In this document: positions 9,730 to 52,487 of the stretch, one piece after another | Position numbering within the stretch: the stretch's first letter is position 1 | Layout of the letters: each line of letters begins with the position of its first letter | Source of the DNA: an uncultured virus (IMG/VR IMGVR_UViG_3300027360_000001) | Taxonomy: Duplodnaviria; Heunggongvirae; Uroviricota; Caudoviricetes | Length of the DNA stretch: 64,000 nt | IMG/VR virus record: IMGVR_UViG_3300027360_000001 | Direction: 5' to 3' (one strand) | Position numbers and translations under genes: made by a program | The notes under the pieces: model-generated | Seen by the model: the letters and a program-made list of their open reading frames with translations, nothing else | What the model was told of the DNA's origin: nothing | Database searches by the model: none

Positions 9730-9814
9730 CGTTGATACCTCCGTTCAACACGAAAAGCCCCGCACACAGGCGAGGCTAAACGTTATTGTATATCGTATAA
9801 AATAGGCGTAAAAA

Positions 9815-10944: not shown

Positions 10945-11850
10945 TTAAGAGGCGTCCTTTTTACTATCTAGGTATTCTTTTAATTGTTCTTCATTTGTGT
11001 CCCGAGATCCATACAACTTGTGAAAATTGATGTGGCATCTTTCGCAAAAAGTTATACCGTTATTGACGTCGGCTCGCAACTCTCTGTTGTCCGCATAGTT
11101 CCTAATATGATGGGCGTGTAACTTACCTGCGTGGTCACCGCACTTCTGACAAGTAAACTCATCTCTTAGAAGTACAAAGTTCCTCCATTTGTCAATACCT
11201 TCTGACCGCCTTCTCTTATCCTCTCTATCCTTTTGGGATAATTCAGGATTCCAACCGTGGTGCTTTTCGCCTCGATAATCTTCGATATGACAATGGCCAC
11301 ATTTACGTCCCTCTTGGAAATGGTCAAAACGGACTTTAATCTCATGTCCTCTCGGACAGACACATGCTAATTGCTTTTTACTTGAAGTATACTCTTCGAG
11401 AAGTGTGTAGCCTTGTTTTTCAACCTCACTTCTAACAAAAGCAGGGTCTAGTTTTACGGAAGCGACAGAGCGCTTGATTCCGCATTCTCTACACCTAACA
11501 CCTAATGTAAAATGGTTGAAAGTACTATAAAACTTGTTTCCACAACTACATTTAAAATTAACCTTGCCTCGGGAGTGTACGTAAGGGTCTAATAGCTCAC
11601 AACCAAATTTGGCTACGTACTCAATGACGTATGATTCGTCCAGGGTAACCCCTTTCCGCATTCTCTCGTACCCGCAAAGAAGACATTTCCCTCCGTTGTT
11701 CACGTTTTTAACCGTGGTGTGGGCTATTCTTCCGCAAGAACACCGGAATTTAAGTTTCGTGCGGTTATTGATGTAGACGTCATCAAGTAATTCTAATCCG
11801 TTTTCTGAAAAAATACGGCGCACTTCTTCGATTGTAAGTTTTTTACCCAT
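10945..11850 (-). CDS. HNH homing endonuclease with N-terminal zinc-ribbon repeats
   Basis: Repeated CxC...CxxC units; C-terminal RDEFTCQKC...LHAHHI...NGITFCERCH; AT-rich insert between scaffold and capsid genes. Confidence 0.85.
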   Translation of the reverse strand: MGKKLTIEEVRRIFSENGLELLDDVYINNRTKLKFRCSCGRIAHTTVKNVNNGGKCLLCGYERMRKGVTLDESYVIEYVAKFGCELLDPYVHSRGKVNFKCSCGNKFYSTFNHFTLGVRCRECGIKRSVASVKLDPAFVRSEVEKQGYTLLEEYTSSKKQLACVCPRGHEIKVRFDHFQEGRKCGHCHIEDYRGEKHHGWNPELSQKDREDKRRRSEGIDKWRNFVLLRDEFTCQKCGDHAGKLHAHHIRNYADNRELRADVNNGITFCERCHINFHKLYGSRDTNEEQLKEYLDSKKDAS

Positions 11851-16124: not shown

Positions 16125-16226
16125 GGCGACCGCCTCCTTTCGAATAAAAATATGTAAATAATGGTTGTAATTCGTGATTGTATATCGTATACTAAACGTA
16201 AGATGAATCGAACATAACGAGGAGAT

Positions 16227-16787
16227 GTGATATTAATGAATACAGTACAACCGCTTAAAAATAAGAAAGACATCGAGAAAATGAAGAAAGCGCTAGGCCG
16301 CGATCGTGACCGTTTGCTTTTCATATTCGGGATAAATAGCGCACTACGTATCAGCGACATACTAAAGCTGAAGGTCGGCGATGTACGCGGCAAGGAATTC
16401 TTATCTCTACGTGAGCAAAAAACGAACAAGGAACGCCGCTTCCCGCTGAACCAATCGATTAAGAAAGCGATAGTCGAGTGCGTTCCTGCTGACGCTTCCG
16501 ACGACGACTTCTTGTTCCCGTCACGTAAAGGCGGAAAGGCAATCGGTCGTGGGCAAGCGTACCAAGTATTAAACGATGCAGCTAAACGTGCTGGGCTTCT
16601 CGAAAAGGTAGGCGAGATCGGTTCGCACAGTTTACGTAAAACGTTCGGATACCACGCGTATAAGAACGGCGTAGATATTTCGTTGTTGCAGTCGATATTC
16701 AACCACGCTAGCCCGCATACGACGCTGAGATATATCGGTATTACACAAACGATGAAGGAAGACGTATTCATCGCGATAAATTTATAA
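16227..16787 (+). CDS. Minimal tyrosine recombinase (catalytic domain only)
   Basis: ALRISD, EQKTNK, HSLRKTFG, FNHAS, TLRYIG catalytic residues; only 186 aa with no N-terminal arm or core-binding domain. Confidence 0.9.
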   Translation: MILMNTVQPLKNKKDIEKMKKALGRDRDRLLFIFGINSALRISDILKLKVGDVRGKEFLSLREQKTNKERRFPLNQSIKKAIVECVPADASDDDFLFPSRKGGKAIGRGQAYQVLNDAAKRAGLLEKVGEIGSHSLRKTFGYHAYKNGVDISLLQSIFNHASPHTTLRYIGITQTMKEDVFIAINL

Positions 16788-16812: not shown

Positions 16813-17973
16813 TTAAGCGAGCGCCTTTTCTATTTCTGCAAGTTTTCTTACGTAGTAATTTTGTTTTGGTTTAGGTAGTCCTTCAACGTACTTATAAACG
16901 TTAACCAAGCGATACTTTCCATTCACTGTACGATCACACGATTTATCTCCTCTCAAAAATACGAGGGTAAGTGAATTGCAGTGCGGAAGGTATTTCCGTA
17001 CCGTCTCCGTGTGCCCTGACGCGTACTGCGAAAGTTTAACGTCAATCCATTCGTTATTTGGTAAAACGAAATCCGGGTCGTAGTGCTCATGTTCGTATTG
17101 GCTGTATTCGACTCCGAACTCCGTTAATATCTCACCGAATAATTCTTCGAGTGCGTACCCGCATTCTGAAGCGATATTCGAGTCGAGTTTTATATTTTCG
17201 TAATCAATGCCCGACGAATTTACCGCGTCTGCCCACGTAGGAAACAACGCCTTTGAAGCCGCTATTAGATGCGTCTTCTTACGTTTTATATACGTATAAT
17301 TCAACGGAACCCCTTCGTCGTAGAGGCGTTTAATTTCAAACGTAAGGCCCTCACGACTTTGTAAGTCCGGTATATAGCGCTTTGGCTTCTCGATAACTTC
17401 TTTAGGTTTATCTATCGTTATGTGGCAGATATTAAGGATTTGCTTAAGATCCTCAATTGTTAAAGATAGCTTAGTCATCGAATTACTGAATCCTCTAACG
17501 CGAGCTGAAAGTGCTGTATGCGTAGGCTCAGTCCCCGATAACAATTCCATAATTACTAACGAGAGAAACTCGTCTTTAGACTTACTGGAACCCGCGAGAT
17601 AGTACGGCTCATGCCCTGATGCTATTATCGCATCGTTCCACGTACCAAATCGACGTTTAGCTGCAGCGACTAAATCTCGATGTCCACTTCGTTTAAGATA
17701 ATCAGAGGATAGTGGGATTCCGCTGTTAGCGAGACGTTGTATCCCATCGATTACTCTCTCGTTAGTCCAATCAAGTTTACGCTCGCCTTTCTGTCGAGGA
17801 AGTCGGTTAATCCCGAAATGGTCGCACGCCTTACCCATCCCGTTAAACCTACGATCGATAGCGCGACATTCATTAGTGTATAACGCCCTGAATTGAGAAG
17901 ACGTAAGCCTTTCGGTTGACGCTTCGGTAAGTAATTCCCGTAGGTAATCGTCTGTATATTTACTTTTCGCCAT
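16813..17973 (-). CDS. Putative homing endonuclease (helical repeats plus PD-(D/E)XK-like nuclease)
   Basis: Repeated RRFGTWNDAI-type units; C-terminal PDFVLPNNEWIDVK. Confidence 0.65.
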   Translation of the reverse strand: MAKSKYTDDYLRELLTEASTERLTSSQFRALYTNECRAIDRRFNGMGKACDHFGINRLPRQKGERKLDWTNERVIDGIQRLANSGIPLSSDYLKRSGHRDLVAAAKRRFGTWNDAIIASGHEPYYLAGSSKSKDEFLSLVIMELLSGTEPTHTALSARVRGFSNSMTKLSLTIEDLKQILNICHITIDKPKEVIEKPKRYIPDLQSREGLTFEIKRLYDEGVPLNYTYIKRKKTHLIAASKALFPTWADAVNSSGIDYENIKLDSNIASECGYALEELFGEILTEFGVEYSQYEHEHYDPDFVLPNNEWIDVKLSQYASGHTETVRKYLPHCNSLTLVFLRGDKSCDRTVNGKYRLVNVYKYVEGLPKPKQNYYVRKLAEIEKALA

Positions 17974-19572: not shown

Positions 19573-19682
19573 GTAAATGTATATAACGTAAATGTATATA
19601 ACGTAAATATATATAACCCATAATATTTATGGTTACGGAACCGTAAAATTCATGGTTACACGCCCATAAAATTCATGGTTAC
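19573..19682. repeat. Iteron-like tandem repeats
   Basis: 3 x GTAAATRTATATAAC (19573-19617) followed by 3 x CCRTAAWATTYATGGTTAC at a 23-bp period (19618, 19641, 19664). Confidence 0.85.
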
Positions 19683-19686
19683 CATT

Positions 19687-20190
19687 CTAAATCCAATCCG
19701 ATAAGTCTTCGCCTGAGTCATCCGTTGTGGTAACGACTGGCTCCTCGACTTGCTTTTTCGCCTTCTCGTAGTGCTTACGTTTACGTTCCTTACCGCCTTT
19801 TACGCGAGTCTCATGCTTTGCCTTACGCTGCTCATTCCGTTCCTTAGCTTGTGGGTACGTAGCATAGAATTCCTCTTCGTCCGTTATCGGAGCGAATACG
19901 TAGTAAACGTTGTTCCCGAACTCCTCATTCGTTCCTGTCTCGATTAGGGCGTATTTCTTTAACGTTTCCTTTATCGCTGTCACAGTCGATTCTGATACGT
20001 TTAGAGCCTCCATTAAGTCCCACGTTGAGGGAAACGCATAGCCATAATTAACGTTGTAGTTCTTCATCAATACGATGTAGGCAAGCGCATCATCTGCGTG
20101 AAAGTCTTCGAGTTTGGTATACAACGTAAATAAAGCGTAATGTACTTGTACGAAGTCTCTTTCGGGTTCAAACGGTTTTTTGTTAGTCAT
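19687..20190 (-). CDS. Winged-HTH protein, replication-initiator-like
   Basis: YAFPSTWDLMEALNVSESTV (HTH_36-like); adjacent to the iteron-like repeats. Confidence 0.6.
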   Translation of the reverse strand: MTNKKPFEPERDFVQVHYALFTLYTKLEDFHADDALAYIVLMKNYNVNYGYAFPSTWDLMEALNVSESTVTAIKETLKKYALIETGTNEEFGNNVYYVFAPITDEEEFYATYPQAKERNEQRKAKHETRVKGGKERKRKHYEKAKKQVEEPVVTTTDDSGEDLSDWI

Positions 20191-20810: not shown

Positions 20811-21473
20811 TTAATTTCGCAATCTTTCTAATAGATTCTTTATTTTTCTTCTTATCCCTCGGATTTCCTCGTCAATTTCTTCAAGCCTTTCATTCAATTG
20901 CTGTTTCTCATCTTCATACTCTTGCCTCCATTCAAGGTAATCTTCGTCATCGTGTTTAAACTGTATATCATCCTCATGGCCTTTAGCGAGGCCTCCCGTA
21001 AAGTTGTTGTTATATATCTTATATTCGGGCTCTGCGTAATGCACCTCGAGCGCATCTAGTTCCTCTAATATATCGTGACGTAACGTTTTCAGCGTTCGCA
21101 ACTCATACTTTAAGTCCTCGATTAGCTCGACTTGGCAACGTAGCTTCCCTCGTGCTTTGAACGACTTAGCCTTGTTATAAATACCTCCGAGCGCACTTAT
21201 CGCGTACGTCTCGTATATCTCCCTTTCGTAAGGATCTGCGGCAAAGTATATCGTTACATAATCGATGGCATCACGGTAGGCGCTCGGAATATTGAAGTGA
21301 TTCGATAGGCGGCTTATTAAATTCTTCGACTGCCCAACGTATAAGCAACGGTTATCCTTATCGTATAACGAATAAACACCTCCACATTTAACCGAAAGTA
21401 GCTCGCGATAGTCGCCAAACTCCGCTTTCTTAAACGTTATCTTATCGTCCGGTAACGTTACTTGTATCGCCAC
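20811..21473 (-). CDS. GIY-YIG nuclease with acidic coiled-coil tail
   Basis: GGVYSLY...LYVGQSKNLISRLSNH...E...YN. Confidence 0.8.
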   Translation of the reverse strand: MAIQVTLPDDKITFKKAEFGDYRELLSVKCGGVYSLYDKDNRCLYVGQSKNLISRLSNHFNIPSAYRDAIDYVTIYFAADPYEREIYETYAISALGGIYNKAKSFKARGKLRCQVELIEDLKYELRTLKTLRHDILEELDALEVHYAEPEYKIYNNNFTGGLAKGHEDDIQFKHDDEDYLEWRQEYEDEKQQLNERLEEIDEEIRGIRRKIKNLLERLRN

Positions 21474-21981
21474 CTACACCAACTCCCTCGTATAGATTGT
21501 ACGTTTTAATAGGCTGCGTCTTCGTAAACTCCCGATACTTCTCGCGCCTCTCCTTATTTCGCGACCTAACGTTTTCATCCATGTACATGTTTTCATTGTC
21601 GGAGCGCTCCCTGCGCTTGTTATCCCCGTATAACCTTCCGTCGCTTCCGTACGTCGCCGTTGCATCCATCGATACCTCTTTTATACCCGATTCGTAGCGT
21701 CGCTGGTGAACACCGTTTTGCCTTCTCGCGAGCTGTAATTCGCTCAGAAACGGGTACTCGATCTGCCTCGTCTTCCACGATGTCGGGTCGAACAGCTCCT
21801 CGTACAGACACAAGTCAGCTAATCGCTCGACCGCCTTCGCATCATTCTTCCCACCCGGACTCAATACGTGCTCCTCCGCTAGTCTTTCGATAGCCTCCAT
21901 ACGCTGTTGCCTGTCGCTCATCTCCTCGTCGCCAGCACGTATGAGGCGTTGTATTTCGGTAATCTTTTCGTGTATCGTCAT
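21442..21981 (-). CDS. Hypothetical phage protein
   Basis: GGAGGAG RBS; downstream of a phage-type promoter motif. Confidence 0.55.
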   Translation of the reverse strand: MTIHEKITEIQRLIRAGDEEMSDRQQRMEAIERLAEEHVLSPGGKNDAKAVERLADLCLYEELFDPTSWKTRQIEYPFLSELQLARRQNGVHQRRYESGIKEVSMDATATYGSDGRLYGDNKRRERSDNENMYMDENVRSRNKERREKYREFTKTQPIKTYNLYEGVGVGGDTSNVTGR

Positions 21982-22028
21982 CCTCGCTCCTCCTCCGCTG
22001 TATGTCGGCGCACAACGCGCCCTCTACT

Positions 22029-22061
22029 TATACATCGTAAGCTGGGCGCGGTTTTTGGCAC
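22029..22061 (-). promoter_or_regulatory. Phage-specific promoter motif (one of six copies)
   Basis: Minus-strand consensus NTGTCAAAAA-N14-CGATGTATA; other copies at 25885-25917, 30755-30787, 41906-41938, 48008-48040 and 53369-53401. Confidence 0.75.
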
Positions 22062-22544
22062 TTTGGACGTAAAAAAGAGCGTTAGCATAAGCGCCAACAC
22101 TCGCGTACTACTATTCCGTATCCACCTCGCCACTACCTCCGCATGTGCCACACGTCGGCTCCTCGTATGTCCCGTTGTCTAGCGTCCGCACTGTCGTACC
22201 GTACCCGTCACATGTCGTGCAGGATTGCGTTGTCATGTCGATCGCCCCTTTCGCTACTCTCGTTATAGCATATGCGATAAGGGCTCACGTATTGCCTGGG
22301 CGAAGTAAATGAACGCAAAAAAGACGCGCCACACGCTATGGCACGCCGAGAATCTTATACGTAACGTAATAGTAGGCGATGATTGCTACGATGAGCATGA
22401 CGCCCGCCCACGGGAATCGAGGCGAATTCATACGCGACCTCCTTTCGATCACTTAGCCTCTTTAGTTTCCGCAATTAGTCGTGTTATTTCGTATACCAAA
22501 TTCTGCATGCTTGTGCCTCCTTTCGTTACAAAATGCGGGTTCTG

Positions 22545-22841
22545 TTAAAAAGTTAATTCTGATGGTTTCAGCTTCTCCCAAACATCATTTAATGCTTCCA
22601 GAAGCAAATGCTCTGGAACAACTTCTAAGATTTTAGCTTTTTGCGCTTCTCGTCTACCGTCCCAATTTAAAGCTCTCCAACCATAATCATTAGTTAATGA
22701 TGCTCCTAAGTACACAGGCTTTCTTTTTCCTTTGGCAATAAACCCAACATCCTCAACCTTTAATCCACTACCCATGAACAATATCCTTATGTCGTATTTA
22801 TTTCCATCTGCATCTTTTTTAAGGATGTTCCAAGATTTCAT
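22545..22841 (-). CDS. Hypothetical protein (AT-rich cassette)
   Basis: RBS present; bounded by the cassette motif. Confidence 0.6.
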   Translation of the reverse strand: MKSWNILKKDADGNKYDIRILFMGSGLKVEDVGFIAKGKRKPVYLGASLTNDYGWRALNWDGRREAQKAKILEVVPEHLLLEALNDVWEKLKPSELTF

Positions 22842-22866
22842 GCAAACACCTCACTTTACGAATGAA

Positions 22867-23046
22867 TTAAAATCCGTATTTTTTCTTTTGGTACTCCTCC
22901 AACGCCTTAATCGCTTCATTGATCTCTTTCGTTTGTTTCTCATAGCATTTGTATCTCGCTGATGTTGCAGGGCAATTCTCCATTCCTTCTTCCAGTTCGT
23001 TTCGCTCAACCTTTAATGTACTAATTGCGTATGAAACACCTGACAT
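22867..23046 (-). CDS. Hypothetical protein, 59 aa (AT-rich cassette)
   Basis: GAGGTG RBS; MSGVSYAISTLKVERNEL... Confidence 0.5.
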   Translation of the reverse strand: MSGVSYAISTLKVERNELEEGMENCPATSARYKCYEKQTKEINEAIKALEEYQKKKYGF

Positions 23047-23085
23047 TTATCATCACCTCATTTTTAACTGAATTCGGATTTGGTT

Positions 23086-23202
23086 TTATTTTTCTTCATA
23101 ATCCTCTGCATCTGCCTCTTCTAATCCACATTCTTTACAAAATGAATTTCCACAGCAAGGGCATTGTATAAACCAACCATTACACACAGGACACTTATCC
23201 AT
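23086..23202 (-). CDS. Small Cys-rich protein, 38 aa (AT-rich cassette)
   Basis: GGAGG RBS; MDKCPVCNGWFIQCPCCGNSFCKECG. Confidence 0.5.
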   Translation of the reverse strand: MDKCPVCNGWFIQCPCCGNSFCKECGLEEADAEDYEEK

Positions 23203-23235
23203 ACTTTAAACCTCCTACAGATTCGGATATTGGTC

Positions 23236-23430
23236 TTACTTCTCCCAAAGATAATCTAAAAACCCCATATAATCATTCAAGAATCTATCATTCATACCAT
23301 CTAATTCTTTTGGTATTAAGCCGAATTCCTCTTCACTTTCTTTGATGTATTCTCTATATGTTTGAGTATTTTGAGAATCTGGTTCAATATCACAAATACG
23401 CGTATCTAAATCTTCTTTAGTTATCAGCAT
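23236..23430 (-). CDS. Hypothetical protein (AT-rich cassette)
   Basis: ORF track; RBS; bounded by the cassette motif. Confidence 0.55.
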   Translation of the reverse strand: MLITKEDLDTRICDIEPDSQNTQTYREYIKESEEEFGLIPKELDGMNDRFLNDYMGFLDYLWEK

Positions 23431-23465
23431 TAAATCCCTCTTTCCTACAAAATCAAGTTTCTATC

Positions 23466-23852
23466 TTACTCTCCGATCGTCACCGTATAGCCCTCGCCTC
23501 GACGCGCCCACGCTTCATAAATACGGGCCACCTTCGTATGCACAGCGCCCAGCAATCGACTCACTCGATACTGCGCCACGCCCATCGATGCGCCTGCGTC
23601 CACTTGCGTCATATCCTCGATGTAGACTAGGCGGAGTGCAGCTCGTTCCATGTCGCTGAGGCCTGCGCGTTCGATTGCCGTTTCGAGGTCGGTCATAATA
23701 ATTACCGCATCGTAATCGCCTGCGTATTTACGGGATTCGATCGCGTGGTAGTCCGCTAGGAGTAGCGAAATTCCCAGCGGGTTATCTAACGCGATGTACT
23801 GCGCTTCTAGGCGTCGTTCTCCTTCGTGTAGGTCGCGTTTCACAGAGCCCAT
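23466..23852 (-). CDS. Sigma-70 region 4-like HTH regulator
   Basis: LSDMERAALRLVYIEDMTQVDAGASMGVAQYRVSR; start adjusted to ATG 23852. Confidence 0.7.
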   Translation of the reverse strand: MGSVKRDLHEGERRLEAQYIALDNPLGISLLLADYHAIESRKYAGDYDAVIIMTDLETAIERAGLSDMERAALRLVYIEDMTQVDAGASMGVAQYRVSRLLGAVHTKVARIYEAWARRGEGYTVTIGE

Positions 23853-24484
23853 TAGTCGGTCGCCTCCGTTCGGTCCAGACGTTTTTCTGCGGGAATGACG
23901 AGGTGTAACTTTTCCGCGAGAACCCATACGCCATTCGCTTCGAATCGTGCGCCGATTCTAACAAGACCGACCGCTCCGTCTGATTCGATTACAACGTTAT
24001 GAGTCGCGCCGAACCCGTCTTCCTCTGCGCGAGTAACGATATCGCCTCGCTTATACTCGTTAACCTTCCGCCCGAGCTTCGCCCACCATCTACGTTGCTT
24101 CTCCGCTACGATTTCTTCTGGCGTGGCAAGTCGGACACTGTGCGGAGTGAAACAGATATCGATAGTAGGCGCATTGTATAGACTATCTAACGTTAAAGAA
24201 AAGCCCTCTCCGTGAATCCAATCGATTTTTCCGACGTATTCTTTGTATATAAATGTGCCCACGACCCAATCACCGACTTTGAACGCAGGCTCCTCGATGA
24301 GGTCGTAGCGGTAGCCCCTCACGTCACACTCGACTGGGTTGTTAGAGTTGGCGTATTTTAAACGATCGGCAATGATAACAAGCGTTACGGCATCATTTTC
24401 AAATTTATCCCCGTCTTTATACACGCCTTGCTCCATCCCTACGAGAATCTCGCCTCTCGTTAACCCCTTCGTTTTCCGTTCCAT
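23852..24484 (-). CDS. Hypothetical phage protein
   Basis: ORF track; FKVGDWV and RLATPEEI motifs common in Bacillus phage proteins. Confidence 0.55.
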   Translation of the reverse strand: MERKTKGLTRGEILVGMEQGVYKDGDKFENDAVTLVIIADRLKYANSNNPVECDVRGYRYDLIEEPAFKVGDWVVGTFIYKEYVGKIDWIHGEGFSLTLDSLYNAPTIDICFTPHSVRLATPEEIVAEKQRRWWAKLGRKVNEYKRGDIVTRAEEDGFGATHNVVIESDGAVGLVRIGARFEANGVWVLAEKLHLVIPAEKRLDRTEATD

Positions 24485-24485
24485 A

Positions 24486-24716
24486 TTATCGCTCTCCCTT
24501 CGCCTCGTGGCGGTTATTAGCCCTCTTTTCCTCCCGCAACATAGCCCACTGGCACCAGTAGTCTCGTTCCTTGCGTACTACCTCCGTGTGCTCCACGCCG
24601 TAGTCGTACAACGCGCATGAGATGTCATGACGTAGTGACTCCGGAATTTGTACGCCCAGCTTCGTGTTAATCAGATATTCCAGGTGATTCGTGTACGCTC
24701 CGATTGATGCGATCAT
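24486..24716 (-). CDS. Hypothetical protein
   Basis: RBS; operon context. Confidence 0.5.
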   Translation of the reverse strand: MIASIGAYTNHLEYLINTKLGVQIPESLRHDISCALYDYGVEHTEVVRKERDYWCQWAMLREEKRANNRHEAKGER

Positions 24717-25252
24717 ACTAGCGCTCCCCTTTCGTTATACCATATCGTATATGCTAGCGCACAAAAAGACGCCCGCTCAGTAATTCCAAACGATTGCAAT
24801 AGCGGCGAGCCATCCGATAATGAACGCTGCGTCCTCTATCGCGTCTTGATACTTCGTCTGCTTCCATTCGCAGATTGCGTGTGCTATTTCGCTGCAGGCG
24901 AGCGGCATTAGCGTGATAAATGCGATTGCTCCCATAAAACTCATCGCGTTTCCTCCTTCCGACAGGCGCATTCGCTGTCTGATACGTGTATATATCGCCC
25001 ACAGTTCGGGCACGGTTCGAAGCAGTTGGCGTTGCCTTTTCGTTCAACCACAGCGTTCAGCTCCTTCGATAACTTGTCGTAGTAACTCAGCGACGAATTC
25101 ATCCGACATAGATTCGGAGTCGTACGTTAGCTTCCCGTCGTTGTCTATGAACAAATCGAACTGTCCGAATCCTTCACGGCAAGCCCATTCGATGCGCATG
25201 CCGCCTTTATTGCGGTCCCACGGTCCCCAAAACGATACGTGTGTCGCAATTT

Positions 25253-34016: not shown

Positions 34017-34700
34017 TTATAGGTATCTAAACGTCCACCCTTTATGTTGACGCGTTCTTCCTTGTAAGCAGCTTGTAATACCTTGTTTAATCAGTCCGTG
34101 GTTACGTGCGAATTCTCTTATTCCTAAAGCTACGAGTCTTTCTCCCGAAGGACTAATTGCCTCGAACTCCTTCTTTAGATGTGTTCTATCTACTATCGCA
34201 GAGTTTTTCGTTTTGGTTAGAAATGTGCAAGTATTAAGTGAGTAGATTTTCGTCTCCGCTTTCATTTGCTTCATGTCTTTATCGAGGTTGAGCACGCCAG
34301 CCTCAAAAAGAGACTGGTCATACCCATCGATTAGTGGGATATCTTTGACGAACTGTTCGAAAGAGCACCATTCCTCCGCTACCGTAACGCCTTTACCTCC
34401 GTAATTTATATACGAGTTATCAGTAACGTCATAGCAACGGCGTAGCATCTTGTGCCATATGTTATAACTCCTTCTATTAGTGACAACATCGGCGTTCCCT
34501 ATATAACCGACACCTAGTATGTCTCGAGCGAATCGGTCCTTTATTTTCCCTCGTTTCATTTGGACCTTTTCGACTACCGTTTCGTAGCCAGTATCTAAAA
34601 ACCGGATGCGCCATTTCTGATTATTGGACTTGCTCTTTCCTTCGGTCGCTAAGACAACATACTTTTGACCGGATTTGTTTTCCAGAATTTCTCCAATCAC
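34017..34700 (-). CDS. Free-standing homing-type endonuclease (NUMOD1-like C-terminus)
   Basis: YNIWHKMLRRCY...YGGKGV...LDKD; C-terminal FARNHGL...HKGWTF; AT-rich. Confidence 0.7.
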   Translation of the reverse strand: MIGEILENKSGQKYVVLATEGKSKSNNQKWRIRFLDTGYETVVEKVQMKRGKIKDRFARDILGVGYIGNADVVTNRRSYNIWHKMLRRCYDVTDNSYINYGGKGVTVAEEWCSFEQFVKDIPLIDGYDQSLFEAGVLNLDKDMKQMKAETKIYSLNTCTFLTKTKNSAIVDRTHLKKEFEAISPSGERLVALGIREFARNHGLIKQGITSCLQGRTRQHKGWTFRYL

Positions 34701-38589: not shown

Positions 38590-38949
38590 TTAGAAAGGCG
38601 CTCCTTCCTCTTTATTATCGTTTAAAACGAGAATCTCTTCGTCGACCGTAGTTAATAGAGGGAGGTTCTCCGCAAGTACTTGGTGCAGTACGTTCGAAGT
38701 CCTATTGACGAGAGATTCATCTTGTTCCTCTGGGTTATACCCCGCTTCAAACATTATTGCGTGAAGCACCTCGTGAACGAGGGTCTGCTCTTTTCTTTCT
38801 GTTGTTAAATCAGCGTCTATTTGAATCACACAATCGCTGAAATCAACTTGACCAAATAATCCGTATTTTCGCTGCAACCCTTCTACTTCTTGGACAATAT
38901 ATAGAGCTCCTCCCACTTTGATTTCCTTCTCGTCGAATATTTTATTCAT
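38590..38949 (-). CDS. ImmA/IrrE-like metallopeptidase
   Basis: TLVHEVLHAI (HExxH). Confidence 0.65.
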   Translation of the reverse strand: MNKIFDEKEIKVGGALYIVQEVEGLQRKYGLFGQVDFSDCVIQIDADLTTERKEQTLVHEVLHAIMFEAGYNPEEQDESLVNRTSNVLHQVLAENLPLLTTVDEEILVLNDNKEEGAPF

Positions 38950-39673
38950 TAATAATCCCCTCCATTTTCTCGAATGTATTTAATCTAGCTTTATCCCCAT
39001 GAAGTTCTATCGCGTATACATTGTACATCTCGGCCGCTACGCGCTCTGTCCCGAAATAACCTATAAATATAGATTTTCCTTGCTTTTTAATCTGTGCTAC
39101 ATATTTACTTCGTCTTTTATCGTAAGTAACTCCTATATACTTTGAGTGTACCCCTCTCACTTTATCAACTGAAAATACCTCGGTCGGTACGTAATCTTTC
39201 GGTATATCGTTTATGACAGCATACTCCCCGAAGTACTCTTCCGCCTTTTTATTATAGTGATACGCAGCATCGATCTCGTTAACAAAACACCCTAAATGCT
39301 CAGTTTTACCGTTAATCTTTATCGAGCTTTGGTATTTTCCGACGCTGATATTAAAGTGAACACCCTTGTATTTACTTGTTGTACTTGAGGACCTTTTACC
39401 TCTATTCCAAGAGTTTTCTAAATGGTTACATATCCTCAAATTCGCTCTTCTATTATCGAGGCCGTTTCTATTTATATGGTCAACGATTTCCCCATCTTTG
39501 GCTCCTGTGATAACTCGATGCATTCTCACGCTCGTTCCAGTCCCGTTAACAATGTCGACTGCAGCCGCGTAGTCAGGGTTTTGAAACCGCCAATTCCATT
39601 GTATAAGGTAATCATAGTCCTCATCATCGACTATCGCTACTTTCCCTTTCGTCAGAGGTATTTCTTTAGCCAT
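38942..39673 (-). CDS. HNH endonuclease with two AP2 domains
   Basis: VDHINRNGLDNRRANLR; twice SKYxGV...LGxF...AA..YN. Confidence 0.9.
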   Translation of the reverse strand: MAKEIPLTKGKVAIVDDEDYDYLIQWNWRFQNPDYAAAVDIVNGTGTSVRMHRVITGAKDGEIVDHINRNGLDNRRANLRICNHLENSWNRGKRSSSTTSKYKGVHFNISVGKYQSSIKINGKTEHLGCFVNEIDAAYHYNKKAEEYFGEYAVINDIPKDYVPTEVFSVDKVRGVHSKYIGVTYDKRRSKYVAQIKKQGKSIFIGYFGTERVAAEMYNVYAIELHGDKARLNTFEKMEGIINE

Positions 39674-50794: not shown

Positions 50795-51580
50795 TCATTT
50801 ACGTTTCCCCCTTTTACTCTCGCCTGTAAATCCGTACTGCAACGTGAGGTCCCTAACGCGATCATAAAGCCGTCTGTCGTAAATCCTCTCGAGTTCCTCC
50901 ATCGGAAAATTCGAAGTATAGACGGTCGGTAGTTGCTTCGATACCCGCGAATTAATCACCGTATGCAAGTCTGCGCGAAATGCATCGCTGGCATCGCGAA
51001 CTCCGAGGTCATCCAAAACGGCGAACCCTGCCGTACTTGCTGCATTCATCCATCGATAGTACTTTGCGCTATTCTCCTCGGCAATCTCACGCGGTACATT
51101 TGGTCGGCTGAACGCATTATACATGGTTTGCCATTCGTTCACGTCAAGGAAAAACGCGGGCATTTGCGCTGGCTGTAAGCCCCGTTTAACGCTTCCGATG
51201 TAGTGTCGTATCAGCCATTCGTTTAATAGCGCCGTGGCTGTCGTAGTTTTCCCTGTGCCCGTTTCCTTCGACCATAAATAGACCGACTTAATTCGCTTCT
51301 CTGGCGGCGTGTTCGCGTCCACCTCGAACTGCCTATCGAATGTCTCCGCTATCTTCACAAGTTGCGTATACACCTTCCACTGCTCCTCGCCCGCCTTGCT
51401 CGTGTCTAGCGTGGTAAGCGCGTATTCGCGGGGCACTAGCGATGCCGCCACGCGTCCGCCGCTTCCGGAGAGGCCATGTAAGGCTATAAAAGCAGGACAT
51501 GTACGGTTACACGACGAAGAGCCCGCAATATTACACGCCTGAGACAGTATACAATTCCTCTTATAATCAAATGGCATCAA
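50795..51580 (-). CDS. DnaC/IstB-like AAA+ helicase loader
   Basis: ETGTGKT, VLDDLG, YTSN, RLYDR. Confidence 0.85.
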   Translation of the reverse strand: MMPFDYKRNCILSQACNIAGSSSCNRTCPAFIALHGLSGSGGRVAASLVPREYALTTLDTSKAGEEQWKVYTQLVKIAETFDRQFEVDANTPPEKRIKSVYLWSKETGTGKTTTATALLNEWLIRHYIGSVKRGLQPAQMPAFFLDVNEWQTMYNAFSRPNVPREIAEENSAKYYRWMNAASTAGFAVLDDLGVRDASDAFRADLHTVINSRVSKQLPTVYTSNFPMEELERIYDRRLYDRVRDLTLQYGFTGESKRGKRK

Positions 51581-52487
51581 GGGACCCTCCCTCTGTACTC
51601 GGATTATCTAAGTTAACTAAATCATCTATATTACGTTTATTACCCTCACACCAATAAACATACTCCTCGAATTCTTCTACGGTCATTCCTAATCTAGCGG
51701 ATAGGTCAGGGACAAGTCTTTCGAAGAAGCGTTCTTGTATTTCTTTCTCTTGGCGCTTAATCCACTCAAAGGGATTCAGTGCGTTCTTGCTTAAATTCAA
51801 ATCACTAGATATCCAGTAGCAGTTCTGAAGAGTAGTACCGCCGTGCCCCCAAGAAAGAGGTATGAAGTGCTCTAGGTGTAGACATTCACTACTTCTGGTA
51901 AGTAGACACAAGCCTGATTGGTCTTGTAACAAACCTAATGCCTCAGAGTTAGTGAGTGTCGCCGGCAGTAGTCTCTTATAAGCACGCTTTCTTTGCCCTT
52001 GAACCACTTGCTGCTCCTTGTTTACCTCCCGCCACTTCTTCACGGATTCTCGTTTGTATTCTCTGTTGTTTGCGCTCCACTCCCTATTCCTCTTTAAAAT
52101 TTCTTCCTTTATGAAAGGGTACTTATCTCGCTTATTCTTGTTGTATATATCTCCTTTAACTTTTCTGCGATCGCGCATTTTTTGAAGTTGTTCATCCCTG
52201 TGCTGCTCATGATACATTTTGAAGTACTCTGGATTATTCTCTCTCCATAAGCGATCTTTCTCCCCTTTGCAAACTTTACACCTAGCTTCCTTCCCTGCAA
52301 TACCAGTACTCCTATTTCTGAAGTTGTCTAACAAATAAACATTCTCACAATTACAACATTTCTTTGCTAATATTTCTTCATCCGAATTCACGTAATAAAC
52401 AGATGCGTGCTTAGTGACTTTATTGACACGTACTCGCTCGTAAAGACCTATGAGGATTATTTCTTCTTTTGAAATTGCGTCAGACAC
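51567..52487 (-). CDS. HNH-type homing endonuclease
   Basis: CCNC...CKVC zinc site; EHFIPLSWGHGG...NLSK; AT-rich. Confidence 0.75.
   Translation of the reverse strand: MSDAISKEEIILIGLYERVRVNKVTKHASVYYVNSDEEILAKKCCNCENVYLLDNFRNRSTGIAGKEARCKVCKGEKDRLWRENNPEYFKMYHEQHRDEQLQKMRDRRKVKGDIYNKNKRDKYPFIKEEILKRNREWSANNREYKRESVKKWREVNKEQQVVQGQRKRAYKRLLPATLTNSEALGLLQDQSGLCLLTRSSECLHLEHFIPLSWGHGGTTLQNCYWISSDLNLSKNALNPFEWIKRQEKEIQERFFERLVPDLSARLGMTVEEFEEYVYWCEGNKRNIDDLVNLDNPSTEGGSLDAI

Follow-up and report, generated by a model that had tools for sequence, protein, structure and literature searches.

The question raised by this locus is whether the short palindromes that separate a run of small AT-rich genes in a phage genome are recombination joints and, if so, how the genes between them are exchanged. 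The window, by which we mean the whole 64,000-nucleotide stretch of DNA analyzed, constitutes most of the 64- to 65-kb genome of a temperate-type Bacillaceae siphophage that was detected in rhizosphere metagenome runs. A sequence-only reading had described the genes as integron-like cassettes bounded by inverted arms around a 4-base spacer, with the minimal recombinase at 16227..16787 or, equally possibly, an enzyme of the host or of another element acting on them. The array and its flanks are as follows; scores and ranks are those of the profile described below.

23466..23852, minus strand: sigma-factor-like gene (phrog_3512), conserved flank of the array
23448..23463, minus strand: outer site following the stop codon of the sigma-like gene; score 8.3, rank 2; GC step from 0.56 to 0.31
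23236..23430, minus strand: cassette gene 1, 64 aa, function unknown (phrog_4072)
23218..23233, minus strand: degenerate site between stop and RBS; score -7.1, rank 285
23086..23202, minus strand: cassette gene 2, 38 aa, Cys-rich (phrog_32630)
23068..23083, minus strand: site like the first site type of the B. cereus arrays; score 7.5, rank 4
22867..23046, minus strand: cassette gene 3, 59 aa
22868..22883, minus strand: site that overlaps the final codons of gene 3; score 5.1, rank 8
22545..22841, minus strand: cassette gene 4, 98 aa, from a family of about-100-aa proteins with 65 representatives
22546..22561, minus strand: possible sixth site within the last part of gene 4, forming a tandem with 22529; rank 357
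22529..22544, minus strand: outer site, the best match in the window; score 12.3, rank 1
21442..21981, minus strand: 179-aa gene (phrog_13088), conserved flank of the array

All five 16-mers named in the sequence-only reading turned out to be present, namely, CAAAAT-GCGG-GTTCTG at 22529, TAAAAT-CCGT-ATTTTT at 22868, CTGAAT-TCGG-ATTTGG at 23068, CAGATT-CGGA-TATTGG at 23218, and CAAAAT-CAAG-TTTCTA at 23448. Likewise confirmed were four minus-strand ORFs, each with its own RBS, and the return to GC-richer DNA at the outer sites (GC content of 0.31 to 0.39 inside versus 0.56 in 23464-23927 and 0.515 in 22100-22528). The palindrome also stood, its variable part being better read as a 6-base center between 5-base arms than as a 4-base spacer. 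Along the minus strand, the order is the sigma-like gene, a site, the 64-aa gene, a site, the 38-aa gene, a site, the 59-aa gene (which ends in a site), the 98-aa gene, and a site with its weak copy. The sites lie at stop-to-RBS junctions in one orientation, and all their centers are different. The weak copy at 22546-22561 may reflect only the conserved C terminus of gene 4. Sites 23218 and 23068, with the 38-aa gene between them, share an 8-base stretch. No promoter or terminator was matched on the minus strand within 22529-23463. After the last site, tiny ORFs of about 19 and 31 aa with an RBS lie at 22336-22508 on the minus strand and are ended by a terminator at 22323-22347.

To score the sites, we used a profile built from B. 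cereus-group prophage loci alone, without window data. The 80 loci behind it, the best 80 of 448, were fetched with one query, a homolog of the minimal recombinase, and are mutually related. Among about 64,000 minus-strand positions, the profile ranked 22529, 23448, 23068, and 22868 as 1, 2, 4, and 8, respectively, and a cluster of four sites scoring at least 5 within 990 bp was reached by only 1 of 2,000 Markov nulls. The plain consensus was not above chance in the window (35 matches versus 31.7 expected). The array sites are a real feature of this DNA. Their scores span 12.3 to -7.8, which makes the window itself a weak, degenerate instance, and the weight of the evidence comes from other phages. 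None of the six centers of the window is identical to a B. cereus center, the best agreeing in 4 to 5 of 6 bases; it is the motif, its position, and the GC steps that would place the window locus in the same system. Isolated profile matches with scores of 9 to 11, possibly due to chance, occur outside the array at 549, 17046, and 18159 (plus strand), two of them near the recombinase and an HNH-repeat gene.

The nearest named relatives of the window phage are 268TH002, phi18-2, and KLEB27-1, with about 45 to 51% identity in the sigma-like protein. In the collections searched, the near records of the phage were 100% identical copies only, other relatives being 45 to 52% identical; no alternative array was found in a relative in these collections, and none of 57 loci from the 45 to 52% relatives held a cluster of three sites. 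In each of 55 relative loci, the 179-aa gene was found behind the sigma-like gene, next to it or with a few genes intervening, and the interval between the two was empty or held other genes in the 20 cases inspected. The AT-rich block of the window is therefore an insertion peculiar to this phage. In one relative (locus L085, at about 8750), a lone perfect 6-4-6 AT palindrome stands right after the stop of a gene inserted in the same interval. A blastn search of the array region against phages and plasmids gave no match. All four matches to the exact window-site pattern in viral contigs were copies of the window phage, as were 4 of the 10 near-exact matches, the remaining 6 lacking an array; a site-plus-RBS pattern gave three matches across 201 genomes, not above a reversed control and with no arrays.

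The cassette genes were followed individually. Gene 1 has homologs in 77 phage records, and the motif flanked none of the four examined. The single homolog of gene 2 in 201 genomes was not flanked by it either, and a search for relatives of gene 3 found none. For the gene 4 family, there was no Pfam or PHROG match, and an Atlas search with the gene 4 product (98 aa) led to nothing usable; its homologs occur in two independent contexts, with site-like ends in one and none in the other. At locus L198:5960-6330, a homolog of the 98-aa protein is flanked by other short dyads, distinct from the array motif. Elsewhere in the window, AT-richer ORFs encoding known or apparent homing endonucleases lie amid core genes at 10945-11850, 16813-17973, 20811-21473, 34017-34700, 38942-39673, and 51567-52487.

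In the B. cereus-group prophages the consensus is (C/T)AAAA, six bases, and TTT(T/G), with AA in front, and the arrays comprise about ten sites. Across the 80 loci, motif density was 2.6 per kb at a distance of 2 to 3 kb upstream of the recombinase and 0.00 to 0.09 per kb downstream, mostly on one strand, the homolog of the minimal recombinase lying 1 to 5 kb from the array. Conservation covers about 18 bases and declines beyond positions -1 to 16 of the core, save for purine-rich, RBS-like bases. For the array analysis, we took the 65 of the 80 loci that had 4 kb or more upstream. Homology blocks shared between these loci started inside sites in 281 of 1,054 cases and ended there in 234 of 1,101, against 5.2% expected by length. 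Block ends fell at sites 4.5-fold over expectation; the corresponding figures were 2.3-fold for site-free gene ends in the array and 1.8-fold for downstream gene ends, which means that gene ends in general account for some of the enrichment.

Nearly all of these arrays (57 of 59) were distinct. Their 534 segments fell into 394 clusters, and 49 of the 84 multicopy clusters had two or more upstream neighbors; many segments contained either a reverse gene or no gene in the forward direction. The sequence tracks the upstream cassette on the left of the core and the downstream one on its right. The two sites had the same center in 55 of 111 and 67 of 124 pairs that shared one neighbor, compared with 5,591 of 96,324 pairs sharing none; the loci are related and come from one query, so these pair counts are not independent events; about half of the same-neighbor pairs had different centers. 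The whole 16-base core tends to match in same-neighbor pairs, position 15 being shared beyond the center, and at same-centered sites with unrelated neighbors the flanks stay near background.

Ten center types cover 400 of the 577 sites in the 57 distinct arrays, and their order agreed in 1,291 of 1,329 pairs (mean of 0.555 and maximum of 0.634 in 200 shuffles). Identical centers within an array numbered 19 versus 144 expected, and adjacent centers were identical in 1.1% of 455 pairs. One slot may hold up to 31 different cassette clusters, both orders were seen in only 12 of 2,139 pairs, and there were two clean insertion/deletion cases, both from one duplication. In these prophages, the comparison of cassette content and order suggested by the sequence-only reading showed a fixed center order with swapped content. 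By this comparison, array content is replaced slot by slot, not stacked, with the centers as addresses. In a related prophage (locus L185), a different 12-base motif lies right after two stops, at 16499 and 17526, flanking an AT-richer methylase-like gene, and is perhaps another class of boundary site.

An exchange of this kind could be followed in phages Wbeta and Gamma, which we compared from 22 kb to the end. Their identity is 100% as far as 8 bases beyond a site of the first type and resumes at 100% with the second base of a site of the third type; between these matched sites lies a differing block of about 2,824 bp in Wbeta and 1,361 bp in Gamma. A review gives these segments as 2,823 and 1,360 bp, the available portion of its text making no mention of the junctions (PMC4113786). 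The Gamma block was found at 99% identity in two prophage records that carry the full ordered site set and a minimal recombinase. Wbeta and the prophage with the Gamma block have only about 21 bases in common at the left joint, center included; at the right joint, the crossover falls no farther than 27 bases from the site, even though about 180 bases of 92% similarity follow. In the nine other Wbeta-like phages listed, similarity to Gamma stops no more than about 25 bases from this left site. The Wbeta-to-Gamma swap is a double crossover at matched sites, compatible with a site-specific recombinase and with short-homology recombination alike. It describes, at the level of sequence, how Gamma, the diagnostic phage, acquired its 1,360-bp block. 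Phage SPbeta, in turn, has 15 strict copies of the motif in 40 kb, all with different centers, 11 of them at or between annotated gene ends.

The motif, its stop-to-RBS position, the fixed center order with swapped content in the B. cereus group, and one historical swap at two matched sites are established by sequence comparison, and we lean toward the view that the sites are addressed joints for exchange, on which a tyrosine-type recombinase from the host or another element acts in trans. A protein would bind the palindromic arms of the 16-mer, and the 6-base center would have to match, or nearly so, for strand exchange to proceed; with the centers differing within each array, the array would not delete itself. 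When two phage genomes meet in one cell, such as those of an infecting phage and a prophage, they would cross over at one matched pair, and resolution at a second matched pair would swap the block between. The block at 22529-23463 would then be an array piece taken into a family otherwise without arrays, its sites now partly decayed. The claim that such sites are recombination joints bounding exchangeable genes is well supported in the motif-sharing B. cereus-group phages; for the window, we infer from these phages that the block arrived and still moves by matched-site exchange. Whether the B. cereus-type, Wbeta-like, SPbeta-like, and window families all share one natural cassette-exchange system, with ordered center-coded slots and a putative recombinase in trans, we consider evenly balanced.

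An alternative that we regard as possible, if doubtful, dispenses with a site-specific recombinase: the arms would be conserved for binding of a dimeric protein, and the sites would act as short homologies for annealing-type or RecA-independent recombination, matched centers being favored since they lengthen the perfect match. The blocks exchanged would be the same as under the favored reading. The perfect matches at the Gamma joints, 21 and 27 bp, exceed the 90th percentile (20 bp) of same-center pairs, and with the shared position 15, they suit homology-driven exchange as well. The tendency of the entire 16-base core to match in same-neighbor pairs points the same way, as do the Sak4-like annealing protein encoded by SPbeta and the precedent of PeSL shuffling in T4-type phages, taken from the accessible part of PMC2839356. 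This explanation, however, needs a second function for the arms, and a plain operator role does not explain the segments with no forward gene or a reverse gene; moreover, the near-background flanks of same-center sites do not grow into longer shared boundaries.

Less probable still, to our mind, is that the window sites serve purely as boundary signals for regulation or translation, or are relics that have decayed and lost any present role, the AT-rich block having entered once by illegitimate recombination. Consistent with this are the degeneracy of the sites, the other small genes that the sigma-to-179-aa interval of the relatives takes without the motif, and the finding that contigs from 4 of 15 runs, in which rare forms are dropped and of which some may be the source of the window, held no variants or joints at 21000-25000. 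A recombinase-fold protein can also be a mere repressor, as MrpR is according to the part of PMC10516654 available. The array nevertheless lacks a promoter consensus, its outer sites mark the GC steps, and operators would not be expected to have slot-specific centers in a fixed order. ComK, LexA, and CodY boxes were set aside as an identity for the sites, their geometry being, as we take it, different.

As to the enzyme, the relevant features of the window are the following.

16227..16787, plus strand: minimal tyrosine recombinase, 186 aa, catalytic domain only (PF00589, phrog_216; catalytic motifs present)
16202..16216, plus strand: a different dyad on the recombinase's own promoter, between promoter and RBS
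19687-20190: replication-initiator-like gene

No other tyrosine recombinase was found in the window, and tblastn with two recombinases detected no full-length integrase; given this and the replication-initiator-like gene, the phage may be a plasmid-type prophage. The dyad at 16202-16216 is likely the cognate site of the recombinase. Of 40 other recombinase loci, 12 have a related motif no more than 70 bp upstream of the gene. These 40 were drawn from 91 recombinase matches in 77 of 301 genomes and, the two closest syntenic relatives included, had at most three array-motif matches in 3 kb; in the two syntenic relatives, the sigma-like and 179-aa genes are adjacent. A de novo search of the same 40 loci found no stop-linked repeats, a result of little weight, as the search missed two of four positive controls and the window. 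No arrays were seen beside the homologs in phi105, phi3626, Javan584, and the named relatives of the window phage in the stretches examined, and in Wbeta and Gamma the stretches beyond 22 kb have seven sites each above a score of 12 and no recombinase homolog by tblastn. The minimal recombinase, one of the enzymes first proposed, is on these counts disfavored. On its side is the B. cereus-type homolog beside the array, which could act in trans on the sites; in 59 of the 80 loci (L103-L182), this homolog has two or more long dyads within 260 bp behind its stop, with a segment of about 55 bp between them, and these are probably its own sites, for a switch or for resolution. Two repeats were noted in the window. 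One is a 24-base near repeat (20/24) at 9781 and 16173, which the recombinase promoter shares with the region preceding a head gene; the other, 15 bases long and in tandem at 19576 and 19591, follows the replication-protein gene.

A search for an enzyme present in all array-bearing phages found none, and an HNH endonuclease, seen in 78 of the 80 prophage loci (20 kb each), was the only protein that these loci had in common with Wbeta. A host or other-element enzyme, first ranked level with the minimal recombinase, appears from these comparisons to be more likely than it, and the enzyme would be a tyrosine-type recombinase supplied in trans. By analogy, host Xer (CodV/RipX) is a candidate: the 6-bp center and the xrs-like logic fit, but 11-bp arms are absent and two inner bases differ. 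The right halves of the outer sites of the window may resemble a Bacillus dif half-site. The Xer/dif geometry, a 28-bp site with two 11-bp arms and a 6-bp center, agrees with our sites in the center only, and XerS sites have A-run/T-run inner arms (both from the available text of PMC5357621), which shows that arms of this sort do occur in sites of tyrosine recombinases.

Least credible of all is the integron-like capture of the sequence-only reading, in which the minimal recombinase would excise single cassettes as circles and insert them at a site: its intact catalytic motifs, its homolog 1 to 5 kb from the B. cereus-type arrays and in a donor-like prophage record, and the 8 bases common to 23218 and 23068 around the 38-aa gene are outweighed by the rarity of identical adjacent centers, of insertion/deletion cases, and of pairs in both orders, by the fixed site order, by the 40 other recombinase loci, by the Wbeta and Gamma arrays in stretches without a homolog of it, and by the recombinase's own, different dyads.

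Mosaicism at phage gene boundaries is usually ascribed to random illegitimate recombination followed by selection. Ordered sites with slot-specific centers would be a programmed route to it. If the proposal is true, it would explain not only the long-known block swap from Wbeta to Gamma but also much of the mosaicism among the accessory genes of these phages. About ten mutually exclusive sites, occurring naturally as a set, could also become a tool for genome engineering. We found no description of the motif in the literature covered, including the part of PMC3025954 available; most subscription papers, the 2006 Gamma/Wbeta genome papers, and supplements lay outside that coverage. The logic of matched-center exchange is known from Acinetobacter Xer cassettes, while its ordered form in Bacillus phages was not found described.

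Among known systems, integrons share with our loci the arrays of small, mostly unknown genes between palindromic sites. Unlike integrons, the Bacillus-phage arrays have no IntI, no stacking at one site, a fixed site order, and replacement in place of insertion. Integron attC sites are long imperfect hairpins, whereas conservation here is confined to about 18 bases with apparently no long hairpin. Nor does the window have the attI/promoter layout: genes for packaging and replication separate the array from the recombinase, 5.7 kb distant, and no promoter was matched in the array. The IntI integrase itself combines a core-binding domain with an IntI-specific insertion (PMC8138268, available in part); the only tyrosine recombinase found in the window has the catalytic domain alone. 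The PeSL cassettes of T4-type phages resemble ours in their repeated boundary elements and in the modular shuffling of nonessential phage genes, but PeSL consist of a promoter and a terminator and yield minicircles (as given in the accessible sections of PMC2839356); the window sites are promoter free, and their distinct centers disfavor circles. SPBRE, the operator of the MrpR repressor, is a 15-bp motif derived from 9 peaks (PMC10516654, from the same partial text), and repressor operators of this type sit at promoters. The window sites lie between stop and RBS. The SPbeta sites are 5-6-5 AT palindromes like those of the window, with another set of centers, the window array being short, degenerate, and from an unrelated 64-kb family. 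Heterospecific lox and FRT sites, used in recombinase-mediated cassette exchange, have common arms and different spacers and allow swaps between matched pairs; they are engineered, 34 bp long, and served by a known enzyme. The Bacillus-phage sites likewise have common arms and differing centers, but they are natural and short.

The closest parallel is offered by the xrs (pdif) sites of Acinetobacter, served by host XerC/XerD, for which a two-step exchange mechanism has been shown in part (here and below, from the portion of PMC11705084 available). There, too, a replicon carries several sites with different 6-bp centers and no deletion within the replicon, and exchange between replicons goes through closely related centers, which in our case is suggested by comparison. 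The Bacillus-phage sites deviate from the Xer inner motif at 2 of 8 inner positions, in columns that are 98 and 95% conserved (PMC11705084). They further differ from xrs in having about 18 conserved bases instead of 28, a one-way orientation, and about ten centers in a fixed order.
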